DNA of 40,482 bases, taken from Escherichia phage vB_EcoP-22664UKE3-2. The stretch lies in sequence record MZ234011.1. One strand, 5' to 3'. The position numbers and the translations under genes were made by a program. Below the pieces are notes generated by a model. It was given only the letters and a program-made list of their open reading frames with translations, did no database searches and was not told the origin of the DNA. Below, piece by piece: positions 1 to 39,916 of the stretch. Position 1 is the stretch's first letter; each line of letters starts with the position of its first letter.

Positions 1-3000
1 ATGCAGGAACGAGAGGAGCGCTCTACGTGGTTCGGTTTCGGTGCGGCTACAGAAGCTGAAGTGAAGAACTCTATGGTCGGCGTGGCTATCCGCGCTGGTC
101 AGACCGAGGACTCACTTGATGTCATTGGCGATGTGTTCAACCCGACCCGCTGGAACAACCATAAGTGGTCTCGTGAGGAGCTAGACCAGATTCGTAACGC
201 TGGGGTTTTGCCTCAGTATTACGGAGTCATTACTGGTGGCTCTCCTCAGAACCTGACCGAGCTTATTAACTTGGCGCTTGAGAACCAGAAGTTGGACCAA
301 GAGAAGGCCAAGGCTGGGACTGGTGCTCAACTGGCGGCTGGTGTGATTGGTGCTGGCGTGGACCCTCTGACCTACGTTCCTATTGCTGGGCAGGTAGGTA
401 AAGGTGGTAAGCTAGTCAACAAGATGTTCACTGTGGCTGCTCAGTCTGGTGCTCTGGCTGGGGCATCCGAGATTGCTCGAACCTCAGTTGCTGGTGGGGA
501 CGCTCATGTTGCTGAAGCTATCCTTGGTGGCGCTCTCTTCGGTGGTGGCATGACTGCTATCGCTGATGGACTAGGCAGAGCCTTAGGTCGCAACACTAAT
601 GAGTTTGCTGGTCCAGCTACACGTTTGGAAGCTCGTGAGACAGCTCGTAACGTTGATGGTCAGGACCTGTCCCGTCTCCCTATTCAGGAAGGTGAGCAGA
701 CCTTTAGTCATCAAGGCGTTAAGTTCGCTGACGTTCCGAATGAGCCGGGAAGTGTACGATTAGAAGACGGTTCAATCCTGATTGGTGAGAACCCTCTGAA
801 CCCTAAGACACGTCAAGTCTTTGACGAAGTGATTGAGCCGGAACGTGCCGCTGCTGGTGTGAACCTTGGTGGACTTACCGAGATTGGCCTGAAGCTGCTT
901 CGGTCTGAGAACCCTGAGATTCGTGGAGTAGCTGCTGACTTAGTGCGTTCACCTACTGGTATGCAGTCTGGGGCCTCAGGTAAAATCGGGACAACTGCGT
1001 CAGACGTGTTCGAGAGACTTCGTTCTGTGGACCATCGGTTCTACAACGACATCGACGATGCGGTTACTGAGGCACTAAAGGACCCGTACTTCCAGACTGC
1101 ATTCTGGCGAGACTCTGGCGCATTCCGTCAGGACATCTACCAGCGTGTGTCTATGGCTATCGAAGATGGTAGCGGAAACCTGAAGGCTGAACTGACTCCG
1201 GGAGAACTGAAAGTCTATGACCTACTGAAGAACCAGTTCGACGCCAAGCGTGAGATGATGGAGAACCCAGCGATGTTTGGTCGTCCAGACGCTCAGTCTA
1301 TCTTTCCGGGTAGCCGCTTCAAGGGAACCTACGTCCCTCATGTGTATAGCAAACAGATGAAGGAGCTGTACATCAAGGAGCTTGGGAGTCCAGAGGCGTT
1401 GCAGGAGGCCATCAAGAAGTCATGGTTGACCAGCTATGCGTCTCGACCTGAAGTCAAGAAACGCGTGGACGAGGCACTTTTAGAGGCTGACCCTACGTTG
1501 ACTCCAGAAGGACTTGCGGCTGCGGTCGATAAGTACGCCAACGATAAGGCTTATGGTATCTCTCACACCGAGCAGTTCGAGCGTTCATCCGTAATGGAGG
1601 AGAACATCAACGGGCTGGTGGGTCTGGAGAACAACAGCTTCCTTGAGGCTCGTAACCTGTTCGATAGCGATATGTCAATCGTTCTTCCTAACGGTCAGAC
1701 CTTCAGTGTCAACAACCTGCGTGAGTGGGACATGGACAAGATTGTCCCGGCCTACAACCGTCGAGTTAATGGTGATATTGCTATCATGGCTGGTACAGGC
1801 AAGACCACGAAGGAAATGAAGGACTTAGTTGAGACCATGATGAACAAGGCTGGCGATGACGGAAAGTTGAAAGGTGAAGTATCTACCTTACGTGACACCC
1901 TGAAGATTCTCACTGGTCGTGCTCGACGTGATGGTGCTGATGATGCGGCCTTCGCTACCGTGATGCGCATGATGACAGACCTATCGTTCTTCGCTAAGAA
2001 TGCCTACATGGGTGTTCAGAACTTAACGGAGATTGGTGGTATGCTGGCTCGTGGTAACGTTCGTGCACTGCTACACGGAGTACCGATGTTCCGTGACCTA
2101 GCCTTCCGTAACAAGAAGGTCGGGGCCTCGGAGATTAAGGACCTGCATAATGTTATCTTCGGTAAAGAATTAGACGACTCAATCCGTCCGTCTAAACAGG
2201 ATGTTATCGACCGTCTGCGATCTTACAGTGACCTTAGTCGTGGTACAGCTACAGCTCTGGGGACTGCTAAGTATTACACTGGTGAACTTGTAGTACGCTC
2301 TCCGTTCACTAAAGTCCTCAACGGTACGACCAACTACCTGTTAGATGCTGGACGTCAAGGCTTCCTGTCTGACATAGTGGAGCATAGCCTGACTGGTAGT
2401 AAGCGTAAGTTCGATGACCGCTGGCTGAAGACCGCTGGTATATCTGACGAGCAGTGGAGTGGAATTAAGTCCCTAATCCGTGAGTCAGTGACTCGTGGGC
2501 CAGACGGGAAGTACACCATCAAGGATAAGAAGGCGTTCAGTCAGGACCCAAGGGCTATGGACCTGTGGCGTATGGGTGACACCATCGCTGACGAGACGTT
2601 ACTCCGGCCTCATAAGCTGTCAAACATGGACGCCAAGGCTTATGGTCCTCTCGCTAAGACTGTCCTTCAGTTTAAGAACTTCGTCATCAAGTCTATCAAT
2701 GGGAGAACCATGCGAACCTTCTATAACGCCACGAAGAACAACAGAGCGATTGACGCTGCACTGTCGACCGTGATGTCTATGGGTCTGGCTGGTATCTACT
2801 ACATGGCTCAGGCGCATGTCAAGGCTTATGCTATGCAGGATGGTCGAGACCGTGACTACCTTAAGCAAGCTCTGGACCCAACGATGATTGGCTATGCGGC
2901 CCTGTCCCGTAGTTCACATCTTGGTGGCCCACTTGGGGTAGCTAACATTCTGGGAGGCATCGCTGGATATGAGGACACTAAGATGCTCCGTTCGTCTATC

Positions 3001-3303
3001 CTACCTCGTTCTCCTACAGAGAAGCCTGAGCGTGCCATCGCGTATGGTGCAGCTACAAGTGACCCTGTGATGAATGTTGTTGGTAACTTCTTGGAGCAGG
3101 TTCCAGCTTTCGGATATGCTGCTAACGTTGGCGCTTCGGCTTACAACTTGGCTGGCTACCTCAAGGCTGATACTCGTGTCAACGAGCGTGACTACATGAC
3201 CGGGATGTATAATACGTTCCGTGAACTGGTTCCGAACGACCCCATTACCCAGAAGCTGCTGCTTGGAACGTTTGAGGAGCAAGGCATCCACATCAAGGAC
3301 TAA
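1..3303 (+). CDS. Internal virion protein D (T7 gp16), C-terminal 1100 aa; 5' part of the gene is at 39898..40482 (frame continuous across the window junction)
   Basis: Translation from base 1 (STWFGFGAATEAEV...TPTRWNNHKWSREELDQIR) aligns with an internal region of T7 gp16 as I recall it; combined length about 1295 aa matches gp16; position after gp15 and before the tail fibre. Confidence 0.9.
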   Translation: MQEREERSTWFGFGAATEAEVKNSMVGVAIRAGQTEDSLDVIGDVFNPTRWNNHKWSREELDQIRNAGVLPQYYGVITGGSPQNLTELINLALENQKLDQEKAKAGTGAQLAAGVIGAGVDPLTYVPIAGQVGKGGKLVNKMFTVAAQSGALAGASEIARTSVAGGDAHVAEAILGGALFGGGMTAIADGLGRALGRNTNEFAGPATRLEARETARNVDGQDLSRLPIQEGEQTFSHQGVKFADVPNEPGSVRLEDGSILIGENPLNPKTRQVFDEVIEPERAAAGVNLGGLTEIGLKLLRSENPEIRGVAADLVRSPTGMQSGASGKIGTTASDVFERLRSVDHRFYNDIDDAVTEALKDPYFQTAFWRDSGAFRQDIYQRVSMAIEDGSGNLKAELTPGELKVYDLLKNQFDAKREMMENPAMFGRPDAQSIFPGSRFKGTYVPHVYSKQMKELYIKELGSPEALQEAIKKSWLTSYASRPEVKKRVDEALLEADPTLTPEGLAAAVDKYANDKAYGISHTEQFERSSVMEENINGLVGLENNSFLEARNLFDSDMSIVLPNGQTFSVNNLREWDMDKIVPAYNRRVNGDIAIMAGTGKTTKEMKDLVETMMNKAGDDGKLKGEVSTLRDTLKILTGRARRDGADDAAFATVMRMMTDLSFFAKNAYMGVQNLTEIGGMLARGNVRALLHGVPMFRDLAFRNKKVGASEIKDLHNVIFGKELDDSIRPSKQDVIDRLRSYSDLSRGTATALGTAKYYTGELVVRSPFTKVLNGTTNYLLDAGRQGFLSDIVEHSLTGSKRKFDDRWLKTAGISDEQWSGIKSLIRESVTRGPDGKYTIKDKKAFSQDPRAMDLWRMGDTIADETLLRPHKLSNMDAKAYGPLAKTVLQFKNFVIKSINGRTMRTFYNATKNNRAIDAALSTVMSMGLAGIYYMAQAHVKAYAMQDGRDRDYLKQALDPTMIGYAALSRSSHLGGPLGVANILGGIAGYEDTKMLRSSILPRSPTEKPERAIAYGAATSDPVMNVVGNFLEQVPAFGYAANVGASAYNLAGYLKADTRVNERDYMTGMYNTFRELVPNDPITQKLLLGTFEEQGIHIKD

Positions 3304-6082: not shown

Positions 6083-6277
6083 ATGATTGAGTTAGACTTC
6101 AAGAATGAGGTCCTTAAAGCCTCTCCTATCGTCGGGACCGCTGCGGCTGATGGTGCCAGTCGGTTCTTCTTCGGACTTACACTGAACGAATGGTTCTACG
6201 TTGCAGCTATCGCGTACACCGTTGTCCAGATTGGTGTGCTAGTCTACAAAACGATTAAAGGAGGTGGTAAAACATGA
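6083..6277 (+). CDS. Holin (T7 gp17.5-like, class II)
   Basis: MIELDFKNEVLKASPIVGT...FFFGLTLNEWFYVAAIAYTVVQIG closely matches T7 gp17.5 as I recall it; RBS GGAGG upstream. Confidence 0.85.
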   Translation: MIELDFKNEVLKASPIVGTAAADGASRFFFGLTLNEWFYVAAIAYTVVQIGVLVYKTIKGGGKT

Positions 6278-6537
6278 CGCAGATGGACTTAGAGAAGTTC
6301 CTCTTGATGCTGGATACAGAACGTGCTCGACTCATGCTGCAAGACTTGCGGGATGACACTAAGCGTTCACCTCAGCTCTACAACGCCATTGAGAAACTGC
6401 TTGCTCGACACAACTTTGTGTTAAGCAAGGTGTCTGTGGACGAGAAGACGCTGGCGGATATGGAGGCCTTGAACGCAGAGTATGATAAGGTGCTCTCCGC
6501 TACGGAAGATAATGACACTGGATACGGAGTACAGTAA
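6274..6537 (+). CDS. Terminase small subunit (T7 gp18-like)
   Basis: FLLMLDTERARLMLQDL...RSPQLYNAIEKLLARHNF resembles T7 gp18; start overlaps the holin stop (ATGA). Confidence 0.8.
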   Translation: MTQMDLEKFLLMLDTERARLMLQDLRDDTKRSPQLYNAIEKLLARHNFVLSKVSVDEKTLADMEALNAEYDKVLSATEDNDTGYGVQ

Positions 6538-6638: not shown

Positions 6639-7082
6639 ATGCTCGAATTTTTAAAGAGAGCGGCTCCGTGGTTACTTGCAGCAGTGATGTTTGCTGGTGG
6701 CTACCACACCGCTAACAATAAGTGGGAGGCTAAGGTAAATGCAGAATACACCTCGAATCTTAAGGCATCGGAGGATACAAGGCTTGCTGTCCAAGCTGAA
6801 GTCAACAAAGTGTCCAAACGGTTTCAGGACGAAATGTCCTCGCTGGAAGGCAGCACTGACAGGATTATTGCTGACCTTCAGTCTGACAATAAGCGGCTGC
6901 GCATCCGAGTCAAACCTACGAGTGGAACCACGCAAAGTGACGGTCGATGCGTCATTGATGGTTACGCCGAACTTGACGAACGAGATGCTAAACGTCTTAT
7001 CTCCATCGGACTGAAAGGGGACGCTTGGATTAAAGCACTACAGGATACTATCCGCAAACTTCAACAAGACAAGGAGAAATGA
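6639..7082 (+). CDS. Rz-like i-spanin (T7 gp18.5-like)
   Basis: MLEFLKRAAPWLLAAVMFAGGYH... with RIIADLQSDNKRLRIRVKPT and DERDAKRLISIGLKGDAWIKALQDTIRKLQ matching T7 gp18.5; N-terminal TM segment. Confidence 0.85.
   Translation: MLEFLKRAAPWLLAAVMFAGGYHTANNKWEAKVNAEYTSNLKASEDTRLAVQAEVNKVSKRFQDEMSSLEGSTDRIIADLQSDNKRLRIRVKPTSGTTQSDGRCVIDGYAELDERDAKRLISIGLKGDAWIKALQDTIRKLQQDKEK
6739..7014 (+). CDS. Rz1-like o-spanin lipoprotein embedded in +1 frame of Rz (T7 gp18.7-like)
   Basis: Embedded ORF with lipobox LTISGCAS and C-terminus VDASLMVTPNLTNEMLNVLS resembling T7 gp18.7; exact start uncertain. Confidence 0.7.
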   Translation: MQNTPRILRHRRIQGLLSKLKSTKCPNGFRTKCPRWKAALTGLLLTFSLTISGCASESNLRVEPRKVTVDASLMVTPNLTNEMLNVLSPSD

Positions 7083-7519
7083 TGCTCAGTGATTCGTATT
7101 TCTATGATGAGTCCAGTAAGTCTGGCCTGAAGTCCCTGCGTTCTGGTAAGGATGTGGGGTGTGTGGGAAACCACGGGTATTATCAGGTAGGAACTCGACG
7201 TCATGGACTCCTGCTGGCCCATAGAGTCGTCTGGGAGCTAACCAACGGTCCTATACCAGAAGGGATGGAGATTGACCATATCGACCGCTGCCGGACTAAC
7301 AACAGGCTGGACAACCTCCGGCTAGTTACTTCAAGCGAGAACTCCTGCAACACCTCAGGACATTCTGACTCAAAGACTGGAGTTAAGAACATATCGTTCC
7401 ATCAGAATGGCTACGCTATCGAGGTCATGCGTAAGGGGGTCCGTATGCGAACAACACGTCCTACTTTAGAGGAGGCTATCTCTGTCCGGGACCTAATGCT
7501 GGAGGGACTCTATGTCTAA
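7079..7519 (+). CDS. HNH homing endonuclease
   Basis: [56 protein letters not shown] is a typical HNH motif; sits between Rz and large terminase where T7 has no gene; overlaps terminase start. Confidence 0.75.
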
Positions 7520-9278
7520 GAAAACACCTGCTGAAAGACAGGCTGAAATGACCCAAAGGATGAGGGACGACTTCGTGTTCTTCATCTTCGTTCTCTGGAA
7601 AGCGCTGAGCCTTCCGGTTCCAACCAGATGTCAGATAGATATGTGTAAGAAGCTGGCTGCTGGCGATAACCGACGCTTCATCCTTCAGGCGTTCCGAGGT
7701 ATTGGCAAATCGTTTCTGACCTGTGGTTTCGTGGTCTGGAAGCTATGGAACAACCCAGACTTGAAGTTCATGATTGTGTCGGCCTCAAAGGAACGAGCCG
7801 ATGCAAACTCCATCTTTATCAAGCGAATCATCGACCTCATGCCTCAGCTTCAGGAACTCAAACCTAAGCAGGGACAGCGAGATGCTGTTATCAGCTTCGA
7901 CGTTGGGCCAGCCAAGCCTGACCACTCACCTTCTGTTAAGTCAGTTGGTATCACTGGTCAGTTGACTGGTAGTCGTGCTGACATACTGATTGCCGATGAC
8001 GTGGAGGTTCCGAACAACTCAGCGACTCAGGCTGCACGAGACCGTCTGTCAGAGCTTGTGAAAGAGTTTGACGCTATCCTGAAGCCGGGAGGTACGATCA
8101 TCTATCTGGGTACTCCTCAGAACGAGATGACCCTGTACCGTGAGCTGGAAGGTCGTGGGTACATCACTACTATCTGGCCCGCTCGTTATCCACGCGATAA
8201 GAAGGACTGGCAGTCTTACGGCGACCGTCTTGCACCGATGCTTCAGGCAGAGCTTGAAGAGGACCCTGAGGCCTTCTACTGGCGTCCGACCGATGAAGTT
8301 CGATTCGACGATACTGACCTGAAGGAACGTGAGCTGTCCTACGGTAAAGCTGGCTTCGCTCTACAGTTCATGCTTAACCCTAACCTGAGTGATGCCGAGA
8401 AGTATCCTCTGAAGCTCCGTGACCTTATCGTAGCAGACTTGGACCCAGCGTCCAGCCCAATGGTCTACCAATGGTTACCGAACCCTCAGAACAAGCGTGA
8501 GGACGTTCCTAACGTTGGACTCATGGGTGACTCGTACCACACGTATCAGACTGTAGGTTCTGCCTTCAGTTCGTACACCCAGAAGATTCTGGTCATAGAC
8601 CCTAGTGGTCGTGGTAAGGATGAAACTGGCTATGCGGTACTATACCAGCTCAACGGCTACATCTTCGCTATGGAAGTTGGTGGCATGCGTGGTGGTTATG
8701 AAGACTCTACGCTGGAAGCCTTGGCTAAGATTGGTCGTAAGTGGAGGGTCAACGAATACGTCATTGAGGGTAACTTCGGTGATGGTATGTACCTTGAGCT
8801 ATTCAAGCCTGTAGCGGCCCGTATCCATCCTGCGGCTGTAACTGAAGTGAAGAGTAAGGGTCAGAAAGAACTACGCATCTGTGACGTTCTGGAGCCTATC
8901 ATGGGGTCTCACAGACTTATCGTTAACGCTGCTGCTATCGTCCAAGACTACCAGACAGCCTCTGACAAGGATGGTGTTCGTAATCCTATCTACTCTCTAT
9001 TCTATCAGATGACACGTATCTCTCGTGAGCGTGGAGCCTTGGCACACGATGACCGACTTGATGCGCTGGCTATCGGTGTACAGTTCTTCGTTGAGTCGAT
9101 GGCTAAGGATGCCAACAAAGGCGAACGTGAAGTCACTGAGGAATGGCTGGAGGAACAGATGGAGAACCCACGGAAAGGCTTCGAGTCCATCCACACTGAG
9201 TTCTGGGACAATGGGGTCCGGGTAACTCACGATACGGACGACGAGCTTGGACTAGGGTCATACGTTACGTTCCACTAG
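7512..9278 (+). CDS. Terminase large subunit (T7 gp19-like)
   Basis: 588 aa, same size and position as T7 gp19; Walker A-like GIGKSF motif near the N-terminus. Confidence 0.95.
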
Positions 9279-37181: not shown

Positions 37182-39464
37182 ATGGCTAGTAATATTGAAT
37201 CAGCTCTGGCTAATCGGACTATGGGTCGTGGCAGGGCTCCGGGTAAAACTATCGCCGTCAACTATCAAGCAGCCAGCGTTCAGGCTCCAACTGGTGACTC
37301 AGGTCTTGCTCGGGCGTTAACCAACTTCGTTGAGTCTGGTACTGGATTATACAAGCAGTTCAAAGACGAGGAGAAGACACGGGCCGACGAGCGGTCTAAC
37401 GAGATTATCCGTAAGCTGACACCTCAGCAAAGACGTGAGGCTATCCAGAACGGTACATTGCTGTATCAGGATGACCCTTACGCTATGGAAGCACTTCGAG
37501 TCAAGACGGGCCGTAACGCTGCCTTTGCGGTTGATGACGAGATTAACGTTAAGATTCAGAACGGTGAGTTCCGTACACGTCAGGACATGGAAGAGTATCG
37601 CCACCAGAGACTTCAGGACGCCGCTAAGTCCTATGCTGAAGAGGCGGGTATTAACCCTACCGACGAGTTCTTCCAGCGCGGGTTCAACGATAACATCACA
37701 GACCGAAACATCGCTATCTATGGGTCTTTCAATAAGTATTTCAGCAAGCAGTCTGAAGAGACAGCAATGTTGAACACTCGTATTGAGATGAACTCGTTCC
37801 TTAACGATGGGGACCTGATGCGTTCGCCTGAGTCTGGAAAGACCTTCATGGCCTACCTTCGGGATGGACTGACGACTGCTGCTATCCCTTCTGACCAGCG
37901 AGCACGAGAGGTAATCACCCAGACGGTCCGTGACGCAATCCAGAAGTCAGGAGGCTCAAGCTTCCTACAGCAAGTCCGTGGCGAGCGTATCACCCTTAAC
38001 GGTATTGATGCTACCATCGAAGAGATTGTAGGCCCTGACGTCTTCAATGCTGCTGTGGTTGAGGCTCAAGGTACCGAGTACAAGTTGGTGGCTAAGTATC
38101 AGGAAGACTTATCGTTAGGCGTTCAGTCTGCGATTCTTCAGGACGACCCAACCATCGGTCTGGCCCAGATTCAGAAACTCAAGGAGCAGAACAACCTGCT
38201 TCAGCCGGGGGAAGAACTCACGCCTCAGCGTCAGATGCTTATTAATGCCGAAGCCAGCTTACTGGAAGCGGTCAAGCGTAAGTCTGCTGAACAGGCGAAG
38301 GAGAACACTAAGTTAATCCAGACTCAGAACAAGCAACTGGTCATCGACCAAGTGTATCAGCGACGTCTGGCTGGGGACAACGTGTCCACCAACTATGAGG
38401 ACCTTCCGGTCTCTGAAGCTACAGGAGAGTTCAAGCGTTCAGACATGAACAACTATGCGTCTGCAAAGCTACAGCAGATTGACCAGATGGACATCCCTGA
38501 GGCTGCTAAGGACGCTCAGAAGGTGGCATTGTTAAGAGCTGACACTAACAACGGTCCGTTCCGTAATGCATTCCAGACGCTTACTCAGGACGCTGCTGGT
38601 GAGTGGCAAGCTGCGGTCATCCGTGGACAGTACGACCCAGACAAGATGCAACGCTTCGAGTCTCTTCGTCGTGCCTACACTCAGGACCCTTCAAGTTTTG
38701 CTGCTCTGTATCCTGACCAAGCTCAGTTGTTCTCTACGTTCGACCAGATGGACAAGATGGGTCTGGACCCTCAGACGATGATTGAAGCTGATAAGCAAGC
38801 TGCAAGTCAAAGCCGTGAGATGCGCATGGAGTCAGACAAGGCGTGGCAGGAGCTGAAGAACGACTCCAAGAACACCCAGTTGTCTCGCCTCCCAACGTCT
38901 CTGGACTCAAGTGCTCGTAAGGTATGGGACTCATGGTACTACCGTACAGGTAACGCTGATGCTGCAACTCAGCAGACTCAACGATGGCTGAATGAAAATA
39001 CCGTAACGTTCCAGTCTGAAGGTTCTGACGGTAAGTCCATCGGCATGGTGTCAAAGCACCAGCTTATGGTCGGGGATAACCCAGAGTCGTGGCAGGTTGG
39101 TCGAGACATTATCGACACCGCTCGTAAGCAGCTCATTAAGGCCAACCCTTGGGTAGTGAACTCTCAGTTGTCCGTTGTTGAACAGAACGGCTCTATCTTC
39201 CTCCAAGACGCTACAGGGACTATTCGTATTCGCTACGATAAAGAACTTGTAGGTAAACTCTACCGCGAACAACAGCAGAAGGCACAAGATGCCGCATACG
39301 CTCAGGCAGAACGTGACGCTAACAAGCGAGCGCGTATCGTCAGGACTAAAACTGCTGGTGACAAACGTCGAGCTGACCGAGAGGCCAACATCGAGAAGCG
39401 CGGAGGGATGTACAATGACGTCTCATTGGAGGGTATCGCAAACGTACTAATCGGTAAGGAGTAA
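37182..39464 (+). CDS. Internal virion protein C (T7 gp15-like)
   Basis: 760-aa ORF at the gp15 position and size; RBS AGAGGAGG upstream. Confidence 0.9.
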   Translation: MASNIESALANRTMGRGRAPGKTIAVNYQAASVQAPTGDSGLARALTNFVESGTGLYKQFKDEEKTRADERSNEIIRKLTPQQRREAIQNGTLLYQDDPYAMEALRVKTGRNAAFAVDDEINVKIQNGEFRTRQDMEEYRHQRLQDAAKSYAEEAGINPTDEFFQRGFNDNITDRNIAIYGSFNKYFSKQSEETAMLNTRIEMNSFLNDGDLMRSPESGKTFMAYLRDGLTTAAIPSDQRAREVITQTVRDAIQKSGGSSFLQQVRGERITLNGIDATIEEIVGPDVFNAAVVEAQGTEYKLVAKYQEDLSLGVQSAILQDDPTIGLAQIQKLKEQNNLLQPGEELTPQRQMLINAEASLLEAVKRKSAEQAKENTKLIQTQNKQLVIDQVYQRRLAGDNVSTNYEDLPVSEATGEFKRSDMNNYASAKLQQIDQMDIPEAAKDAQKVALLRADTNNGPFRNAFQTLTQDAAGEWQAAVIRGQYDPDKMQRFESLRRAYTQDPSSFAALYPDQAQLFSTFDQMDKMGLDPQTMIEADKQAASQSREMRMESDKAWQELKNDSKNTQLSRLPTSLDSSARKVWDSWYYRTGNADAATQQTQRWLNENTVTFQSEGSDGKSIGMVSKHQLMVGDNPESWQVGRDIIDTARKQLIKANPWVVNSQLSVVEQNGSIFLQDATGTIRIRYDKELVGKLYREQQQKAQDAAYAQAERDANKRARIVRTKTAGDKRRADREANIEKRGGMYNDVSLEGIANVLIGKE

Positions 39465-39466
39465 AC

Positions 39467-39916
39467 ATGAAGAACGGGACAGCCAGTGAGAGACTGGCAG
39501 AACTGTCAGTAGCTGAAGAGTCTGGCTGTATCCGATTCACAGGCCACTTAGACGGAGAAGGATACGGAAGGATAATGGTGGCTAGGGTTAAGTATATGGC
39601 ACATCGTCTCTCCTACTCCATAAATAAGGGGCCAATACCAGATGGCTATGTTGTTAGGCATAAATGTGATAATCCATCATGCATAAATCCTGAACACCTT
39701 GAAGTAGGAACGCAGGCTGACAACATTGCAGATAAGGTATCCAGAGGCCGACAGGCAAGAGGTAGTGGAGCAGGCAGAGCTATACTGACAGAGGAATCTG
39801 TTAGGGAAATACGCTCCAGTCCATTAAAAGTATCTGAGCTTTCCACCTTATACGGGGTAAGCGTCGTTTCCATACGAAATATATTGAGGAGAAAGACATG
39901 GCAACACGTGGCGTAA
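39467..39916 (+). CDS. HNH homing endonuclease inserted between gp15 and gp16
   Basis: GCIRFTGHLDGEGYGRIMVARVKYMAHRLSYSINKGPIPDGYVVRHKCDNPSCINPEHLEVGTQADN is a classical HNH motif; overlaps the gp16 start by 19 nt. Confidence 0.8.
   Translation: MKNGTASERLAELSVAEESGCIRFTGHLDGEGYGRIMVARVKYMAHRLSYSINKGPIPDGYVVRHKCDNPSCINPEHLEVGTQADNIADKVSRGRQARGSGAGRAILTEESVREIRSSPLKVSELSTLYGVSVVSIRNILRRKTWQHVA

Follow-up and report, generated by a model that had tools for sequence, protein, structure and literature searches.

An HNH_3 gene between the Rz and large terminase genes of Escherichia phage vB_EcoP-22664UKE3-2, predicted to encode a free-standing homing endonuclease

Phage T7 has no gene between gene 18.5 and the large terminase gene 19, as the earlier note on this DNA had stated; gene 18.5 ends at 37348 and gene 19 starts at 37370, leaving only a 21-bp gap. 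In Escherichia phage vB_EcoP-22664UKE3-2 (MZ234011.1) the same junction is occupied by an open reading frame for an HNH protein, which raises the question of what such a gene does beside the terminase. It could be a packaging accessory, whose product cuts concatemers together with the large terminase (TerL) as HK97 gp74-type proteins do in cos phages, or a mobile gene, and both readings had been proposed. Our analysis of the whole stretch of 40,482 nucleotides, called the window here, indicates that the ORF is very probably a free-standing homing endonuclease gene, HNH_3 and I-HmuI-like, with predicted activity. A mobile insertion marked by a homing endonuclease, one of the two proposals, finds support in the sporadic presence of the gene, the empty sites and scars at the locus, a tract common to Citrobacter phage CR8, an ectopic copy in Citrobacter phage NS1 and the I-HmuI-like sequence and fold.

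The HNH gene and its reading signals

The window is a complete genome of about 40.5 kb, in a permuted order as compared with the T7 convention. It begins exactly at the gene-16 start codon and has gene 15 and a second HNH gene at its end, and the records of the MZ234022 group share this permuted layout. Over 3.4 kb around the locus it shows 97.5% identity to Escherichia phage vB_EcoP-101120B1-2 and its siblings (Autographiviridae, Studiervirinae, Kayfunavirus). The features of the locus and of the second HNH gene are:

6083..6277, holin gene, preceding Rz
6274..6537, small terminase gene (gp18), preceding Rz
6639..7082, + strand, Rz i-spanin gene, gene 18.5-like, the left flank (PHROG 1327, E 7e-61)
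6739..7014, + strand, embedded Rz1 o-spanin frame with the lipobox LTISGC, in the +1 frame inside Rz
7069..7732, + strand, recently exchanged tract (6 mismatches in 664 bp against CR8, 99.1% identity)
7071..7076, + strand, Shine-Dalgarno AAGGAG serving the HNH start at 7082, read directly from the sequence
7079..7519, + strand, HNH_3 gene, putative free-standing homing endonuclease (146 aa; 145 aa if the ATG at 7082 is used)
7214..7345, + strand, HNH beta-beta-alpha-metal nuclease core (residues 46-89)
7376..7501, + strand, C-terminal module of three strands and a helix with an AP2/ERF-like fold (residues about 100-141)
7501..7506, + strand, Shine-Dalgarno GGAGGG for gene 19, within the 3' end of the HNH ORF
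7512..7577, + strand, HNH-linked first 22 terminase codons, which travel with the HNH gene and are unlike those of the class-A empty alleles described below
7512..9278, + strand, T7-type large terminase gene (gene 19), the right flank (588 aa; PF22530, E 1.3e-37)
39467..39916, + strand, second free-standing HNH_3 gene (149 aa; PF13392, E 1.2e-13, with a weak zf-His_Me_endon match)

Pfam, PHROG and the coordinates agree with the earlier description of the ORF at 7079-7519 as an HNH endonuclease gene that lies between Rz and TerL and overlaps TerL. The second ATG, at 7082, is the likelier start because AAGGAG lies 5 nt upstream of it and the homologues begin with MLSD; the GenBank annotation and the homologues likewise start the protein there, giving 145 aa. 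The homologous AAGGAGG of HNH-less alleles is the Shine-Dalgarno of the terminase start codon. On the left, the Rz stop TGA (7080-7082) overlaps the first HNH ATG at 7079 in the sequence ATGA, and Rz ends in QQDKEK here versus QQDKEVTH in the empty-site alleles. The Rz1 o-spanin frame inside Rz is the equivalent of gene 18.7 and is annotated so in CR8 and Penshu1. On the right, gene 19 is intact, and the HNH gene does not interrupt the terminase ORF; the gene-19 ATG falls 8 nt within the HNH ORF (ATGTCTAA), and TerL matches PHROG 38 (E 4.5e-131). The HNH gene showed no foreign base composition, with a GC content of 50.8% versus 49.8% for the window.

Protein family, catalytic residues and fold

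HNH_3 (PF13392) was the only Pfam match of the protein; it spans profile positions 2-45 of 46 and scores 75.9 bits (cut-off 24.8; E 1.8e-21). PHROG 99, 'HNH endonuclease', matched with E 7.5e-45, and chance can be dismissed as the source of these matches. The catalytic pair D66-H67 is encoded at 7274-7279 and is followed by N79 and N88. In the alignment with the PDB sequence of I-HmuI (1U3E) these residues fall on D74, H75, N87 and N96, so the catalytic residues, whose absence was to have refuted the proposal, are all present. The I-HmuI structure of Shen et al. from 2004 reportedly assigns D74, H75, N87 and N96 the roles of metal ligand, general base and two motif asparagines. Across 31 aligned homologues, H48, D66, H67, L80, R81 and N91 were invariant, and N75, N79 and N88 were conserved in at least 90%. 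The AlphaFold2 model built on this alignment was confident (mean pLDDT 88.6) and I-HmuI-like in fold. Residues 1-95 comprise a beta-sheet region for DNA contact and, after it, the beta-beta-alpha-metal HNH nuclease, and the C-terminal AP2-like module is presumed to be a DNA-binding domain.

The protein is under purifying selection, with a dN/dS of 0.09-0.24 against four other alleles and 0.05 against the NS1 copy. No CxxC or CxxH motif was found in its translation, in which the only cysteines, C28, C71 and C90, are isolated. HNH proteins of the HK97 gp74 type carry a CxxC/CxxH zinc site (Xu & Gupta 2013, PMC3592412); the absence of such a site and the membership of a different HNH family from that of gp74 argue against a partner of the terminase.

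A tblastn search of the window found no close paralogue of the HNH protein, only a weak match of 22 residues at 39596-39661. This match was rejected as a close paralogue, since Pfam assigned it to the distantly related second HNH_3 gene. The latter comes after gene 15 (37182..39464) and before gene 16 (1..3303 after wrap-around) and is as sporadic as the first gene: its region was fully covered in 16 of 204 related records, most of which lack about 450 bp, and it is missing even from the closest relatives of the phage. Its counterpart in CR44b is annotated as '7.7C HNH endonuclease'.

Patchy occurrence, empty sites and horizontal transfer

The 3.4 kb surrounding the gene are common to 726 phage records (megablast). 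The HNH ORF was found at a coverage of at least 80% in only 39 records (92-99.8% identity), and a sister allele about 71% identical was present in about 15-20 further ones. Protein homologues with E<=1e-20 occurred in 57 of 50,697 records, 39 of them with at least 90% identity, 15 with 60-80% and three lower. Among 80 IMG/VR loci retrieved with a terminase, three had an HNH gene directly upstream of TerL; where TerL was at least 89% identical in amino acids, two of the eight loci carried the sister allele and six were empty, with Rz abutting TerL. Presence and absence are polymorphic at a fixed site among close relatives. The comparison of related genomes that had been recommended shows that the gene is not universal in the lineage; most relatives lack it, even some whose TerL is about 98% identical.

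The MZ234022 group (vB_EcoP-101120B1-2 / PM129-139) has a 100% identical protein annotated as 'HNH homing endonuclease', and gene 3.8A of Citrobacter phage CR8 (NC_023548, Caroctavirus), an 'HNH endonuclease', is 98.6% identical in amino acids; in both, the position between Rz and gene 19 and both overlaps are the same as here. The sister allele (CR44b, Hafnia phage Ca/yong1) lies at the same site with about 65% amino acid identity, and its HNH 3' end and gene-19 5' end are identical to those of the window. The HNH gene of these GenBank relatives differs in no material way from that of the window. In the paper on Hafnia phage Ca/yong1, the sister allele is placed at this locus, its two overlaps are noted and it is named a homing endonuclease gene (PMC8861465). 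The gene is annotated in dozens of Kayfunavirus and Caroctavirus genomes and discussed in one paper, and the arrangement is less unexpected than the earlier note had claimed.

All homologues of at least 60% identity whose flanks were examined, or whose terminase was annotated under the match, lie immediately upstream of a T7-type TerL, and the NS1 copy is the only close one found elsewhere. In all three public contigs examined, whose homologues are 60-81% identical, the 8-nt overlap with TerL is the same as in the window, and the adjacency to TerL persists even where the upstream neighbour is not Rz. A relative of the same length and 43% identity overlaps and precedes the DNA ligase gene 1.3 in other T7-like phages. 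Two further records may be mentioned here. The Logan contig from SRR23684453 (L161, 4701-5225), from a more distant T7-like phage, has HNH_3 genes on both sides of TerL, namely a homologue of 144 aa upstream and an HNH_3 gene of 174 aa immediately downstream. The record OR786095.1, 'Staphylococcus phage MBBL139' (39,989 bp, labelled as an S. aureus phage), is 87% identical to the Kayfunavirus region and carries the same HNH gene at 98.6% identity; its host label is probably wrong, or the sample contaminated.

Empty junctions were found in L071, L072, L076, ST1749, NS1 and IME177, and they fall into two classes. In class A, comprising the first five, the Rz stop overlaps a TTG terminase start directly after AAGGAGG, and the first 21-22 or so terminase codons (LSKDLVARQELMTARMKADFV) differ strongly from those of the window, beyond which the genes are 92-98% identical. 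Class B, comprising IME177 and several Kayfunavirus metagenome genomes, has a window-like terminase 5' end with neither HNH gene nor remnant. We considered the 22 'HNH-type' codons as a target-immunity allele confined to HNH-carrying phages and rejected this in its strict form, as IME177, Emlis, Bia and others have these codons without HNH gene or scar. The 'HNH-type' terminase 5' end is not strictly diagnostic of the element because HNH-less phages of the IME177 type carry it.

Deletion scars are seen in Ro45lw and Penshu1, which keep 18-23 nt from the beginning and 29-57 nt from the end of the sister HNH allele. The deletions are of about 366 and 385 bp with different end-points, that of Penshu1 lies between GGACC repeats, and both scars retain the gene-19 GGAGGG segment. 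Judged from their end-points, these scars are independent losses, and they resemble the spontaneous 397-bp deletion that occurs in stocks of Hafnia phage Ca (PMC8861465). In the record of vB_HpaA_yong1 (L155, MK610268) the HNH gene is shifted out of frame at about 290-330 by one additional base, a T in CCGTTTAGG that L069 lacks; this is either a sequencing error or a real pseudogene. The record annotates only a 'homing endonuclease' of 45 aa and the paper lists an ORF of 143 aa. Because of this frameshift the published end-points of the 397-bp deletion are not exactly reproducible from the record. The Rz/gene-19 junction seems to be a hot spot for accessory cargo in general. In CLB_P1 (L002, KC109329, 1590-2381) an unrelated ORF of 263 aa, gp18.8, annotated as a 'putative protease', lies at the junction, and gaps of 650-740 bp are seen there in the IMG/VR loci L083 and L090.

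Comparison with CR8 showed a transfer between genera with co-conversion of the neighbouring terminase sequence. From 7079 to 7700 the identity to CR8 is 98-100%, versus 69% (holin gene), 54% (gp18), 64% (Rz) and 70-77% (distal two-thirds of TerL) elsewhere, so that the element is more alike between the two genomes than its flanks are. At single-base resolution the left edge is sharp at 7069 and the right edge is gradual, over 7733-7835. The exchanged tract consists of the HNH gene and about 220 bp of co-converted gene-19 5' end. Salmonella phage PRF-SP2 shows the same pattern more weakly (Rz 60-72%, HNH 98%, TerL 92-96%). This distribution of identity bears the signature of a cassette that moved recently and co-converted the beginning of gene 19. 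Over most of their length the window allele and the sister allele agree in only about 60% of nucleotides, but identity is 98-100% in the final 51 nt of the HNH gene and in the 69 nt with which gene 19 begins. The alignments of empty sites and the shape of the co-conversion tract were searched for the cleavage site and gave no decisive position; the cut could lie at the junction or in the first 200-300 bp of gene 19.

Citrobacter phage NS1 (L163, MN715150.2, Kayfunavirus) carries an intact HNH copy of 96% identity between gene 17 and the holin gene, and its own Rz/TerL junction is empty, of class A. The transposed segment corresponds to window positions of about 7080-7562 and includes the first 50 nt or so of gene 19. 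The cassette (1640-2302) has imperfect direct repeats of about 75-90 bp at its two ends (1640-1713 and 2215-2302), which could be a target duplication or a repeated intergenic or terminator element. The NS1 and window copies differ by 35 synonymous and 7 non-synonymous changes, and the resulting low dN/dS therefore indicates that the protein stays under selection when it is unlinked from the terminase gene.

Proposed mode of spread, rival readings and known systems

We infer an enzymatic activity, be it a nick or a double-strand cut, and a target sequence from analogy with characterized endonucleases. An HNH-carrying phage and an HNH-less relative would co-infect, and the enzyme would nick or cut the HNH-less genome near the Rz/gene-19 junction, as I-HmuI, MobE and the Seg enzymes suggest. 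Recombinational repair would then be templated by the HNH-carrying genome and would copy the HNH gene together with adjacent gene-19 sequence into the recipient. The element lies exactly at the initiation region of the terminase. It takes the former terminase ribosome-binding site for its own start and provides the terminase with another ribosome-binding site, another ATG and some 22 codons in place of the old ones, so that the essential terminase gene stays expressed. Both overlaps and the constant 3' end of the scars are explained by an element that took, and replaced, the translation signals of the terminase.

A selfish element may also have turned useful to its host phage, by improving terminase expression or packaging, by disabling gene 19 of co-infecting HNH-less relatives (marker exclusion), or both; carriers would then be fitter or more competitive than homing by itself would make them. 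We regard this as unlikely. If true, it would explain the 8-nt TerL overlap in the three contigs, the strong purifying selection and the plaque split seen with Hafnia phage Ca, where complete genomes made up more than 98% in large plaques and deleted ones more than 98% in small plaques (PMC8861465). That split hints that the gene or its DNA adds to fitness, and the TerL adjacency of all close homologues likewise leaves slight room for a secondary benefit. The plaque data, however, stem from a single study that used no defined mutant, and damage to terminase translation by that deletion could equally account for them. The inserted DNA does provide the terminase with its ribosome-binding site, ATG and coupling, and exactly that segment is kept in both scars; the near-identity of the last 51 nt of HNH and the first 69 nt of TerL between otherwise divergent alleles, and the low dN/dS, point the same way. 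Most relatives, however, do without the gene.

It is very improbable that the gene is an inactive remnant, whose product cuts nothing and which persists because its removal would disturb terminase expression. Homing endonuclease genes commonly degenerate after fixation, and deletions and the frameshifted yong1 copy are seen at this locus, but the window ORF is intact with every catalytic residue in place, selection is purifying across the alleles including the ectopic one of NS1, and the 99%-identical tract common to another genus indicates recent spread.

Cos-associated HNH nickases occur, according to Kala et al. 2014 as cited in PMC8861465, in cos phages with a Terminase_1-type TerL. A packaging accessory, as had also been suggested for the present gene, is the least credible reading and can be set aside: the position immediately upstream of TerL with translational overlap, the TerL adjacency of every homologue of at least 60% identity with its context examined, which a functional partnership also predicts, and the plaque-size correlation in Hafnia phage Ca (PMC8861465) would all suit it, but the phage is a T7-like Kayfunavirus and not of the cos type, its TerL matches PF22530 (T7 RNaseH-like) and weakly Terminase_6N with no match to Terminase_1, the HNH family is not that of gp74, the protein lacks the zinc site, and plaque-forming relatives with nearly the same TerL lack the gene.

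The reading as a homing endonuclease gene has some practical consequences. The gene should be labelled a free-standing HNH homing endonuclease and not a packaging factor, and the adjoining 5' end of gene 19 should be seen as belonging to the recombining cassette. In the engineering of Kayfunavirus phages for therapy, the gene can probably be dispensed with as long as the ribosome-binding site of the terminase in its 3' end is kept. The locus offers a tidy natural example of the homing-endonuclease life cycle, with invasion, co-conversion, an ectopic jump and deletion scars, and would suit homing crosses; beyond correct annotation it carries little weight.

As compared to known systems, the HK97 gp74 type is likewise a small phage HNH protein encoded beside the terminase genes, but it is conserved and required, whereas the window gene is sporadic. 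I-HmuI, the nicking enzyme of Bacillus phage SPO1, was the only significant PDB match in both sequence and fold. The two proteins, which are no more than about 22-24% identical, have in common an N-terminal beta-sheet region followed by an HNH core with D-H...N...N. The I-HmuI gene lies within a group I intron and its protein ends in helices and a helix-turn-helix, whereas the window gene is free-standing and its protein has the AP2-like module instead. The free-standing MobE and SegB-G of T4-like phages show 'intronless homing' (PMC2988022, PMC2790892), and for them homing was demonstrated by experiment. They belong to a different phage family, and the Seg proteins are of the GIY-YIG type; the likeness lies in the presumed mode of working and not in sequence. 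Like MobE and the Seg genes, the HNH_3 gene of the window is an intergenic endonuclease gene beside a conserved essential gene, would find its target in the neighbouring gene of endonuclease-less relatives, is patchy in its occurrence and has co-converted flanking markers.
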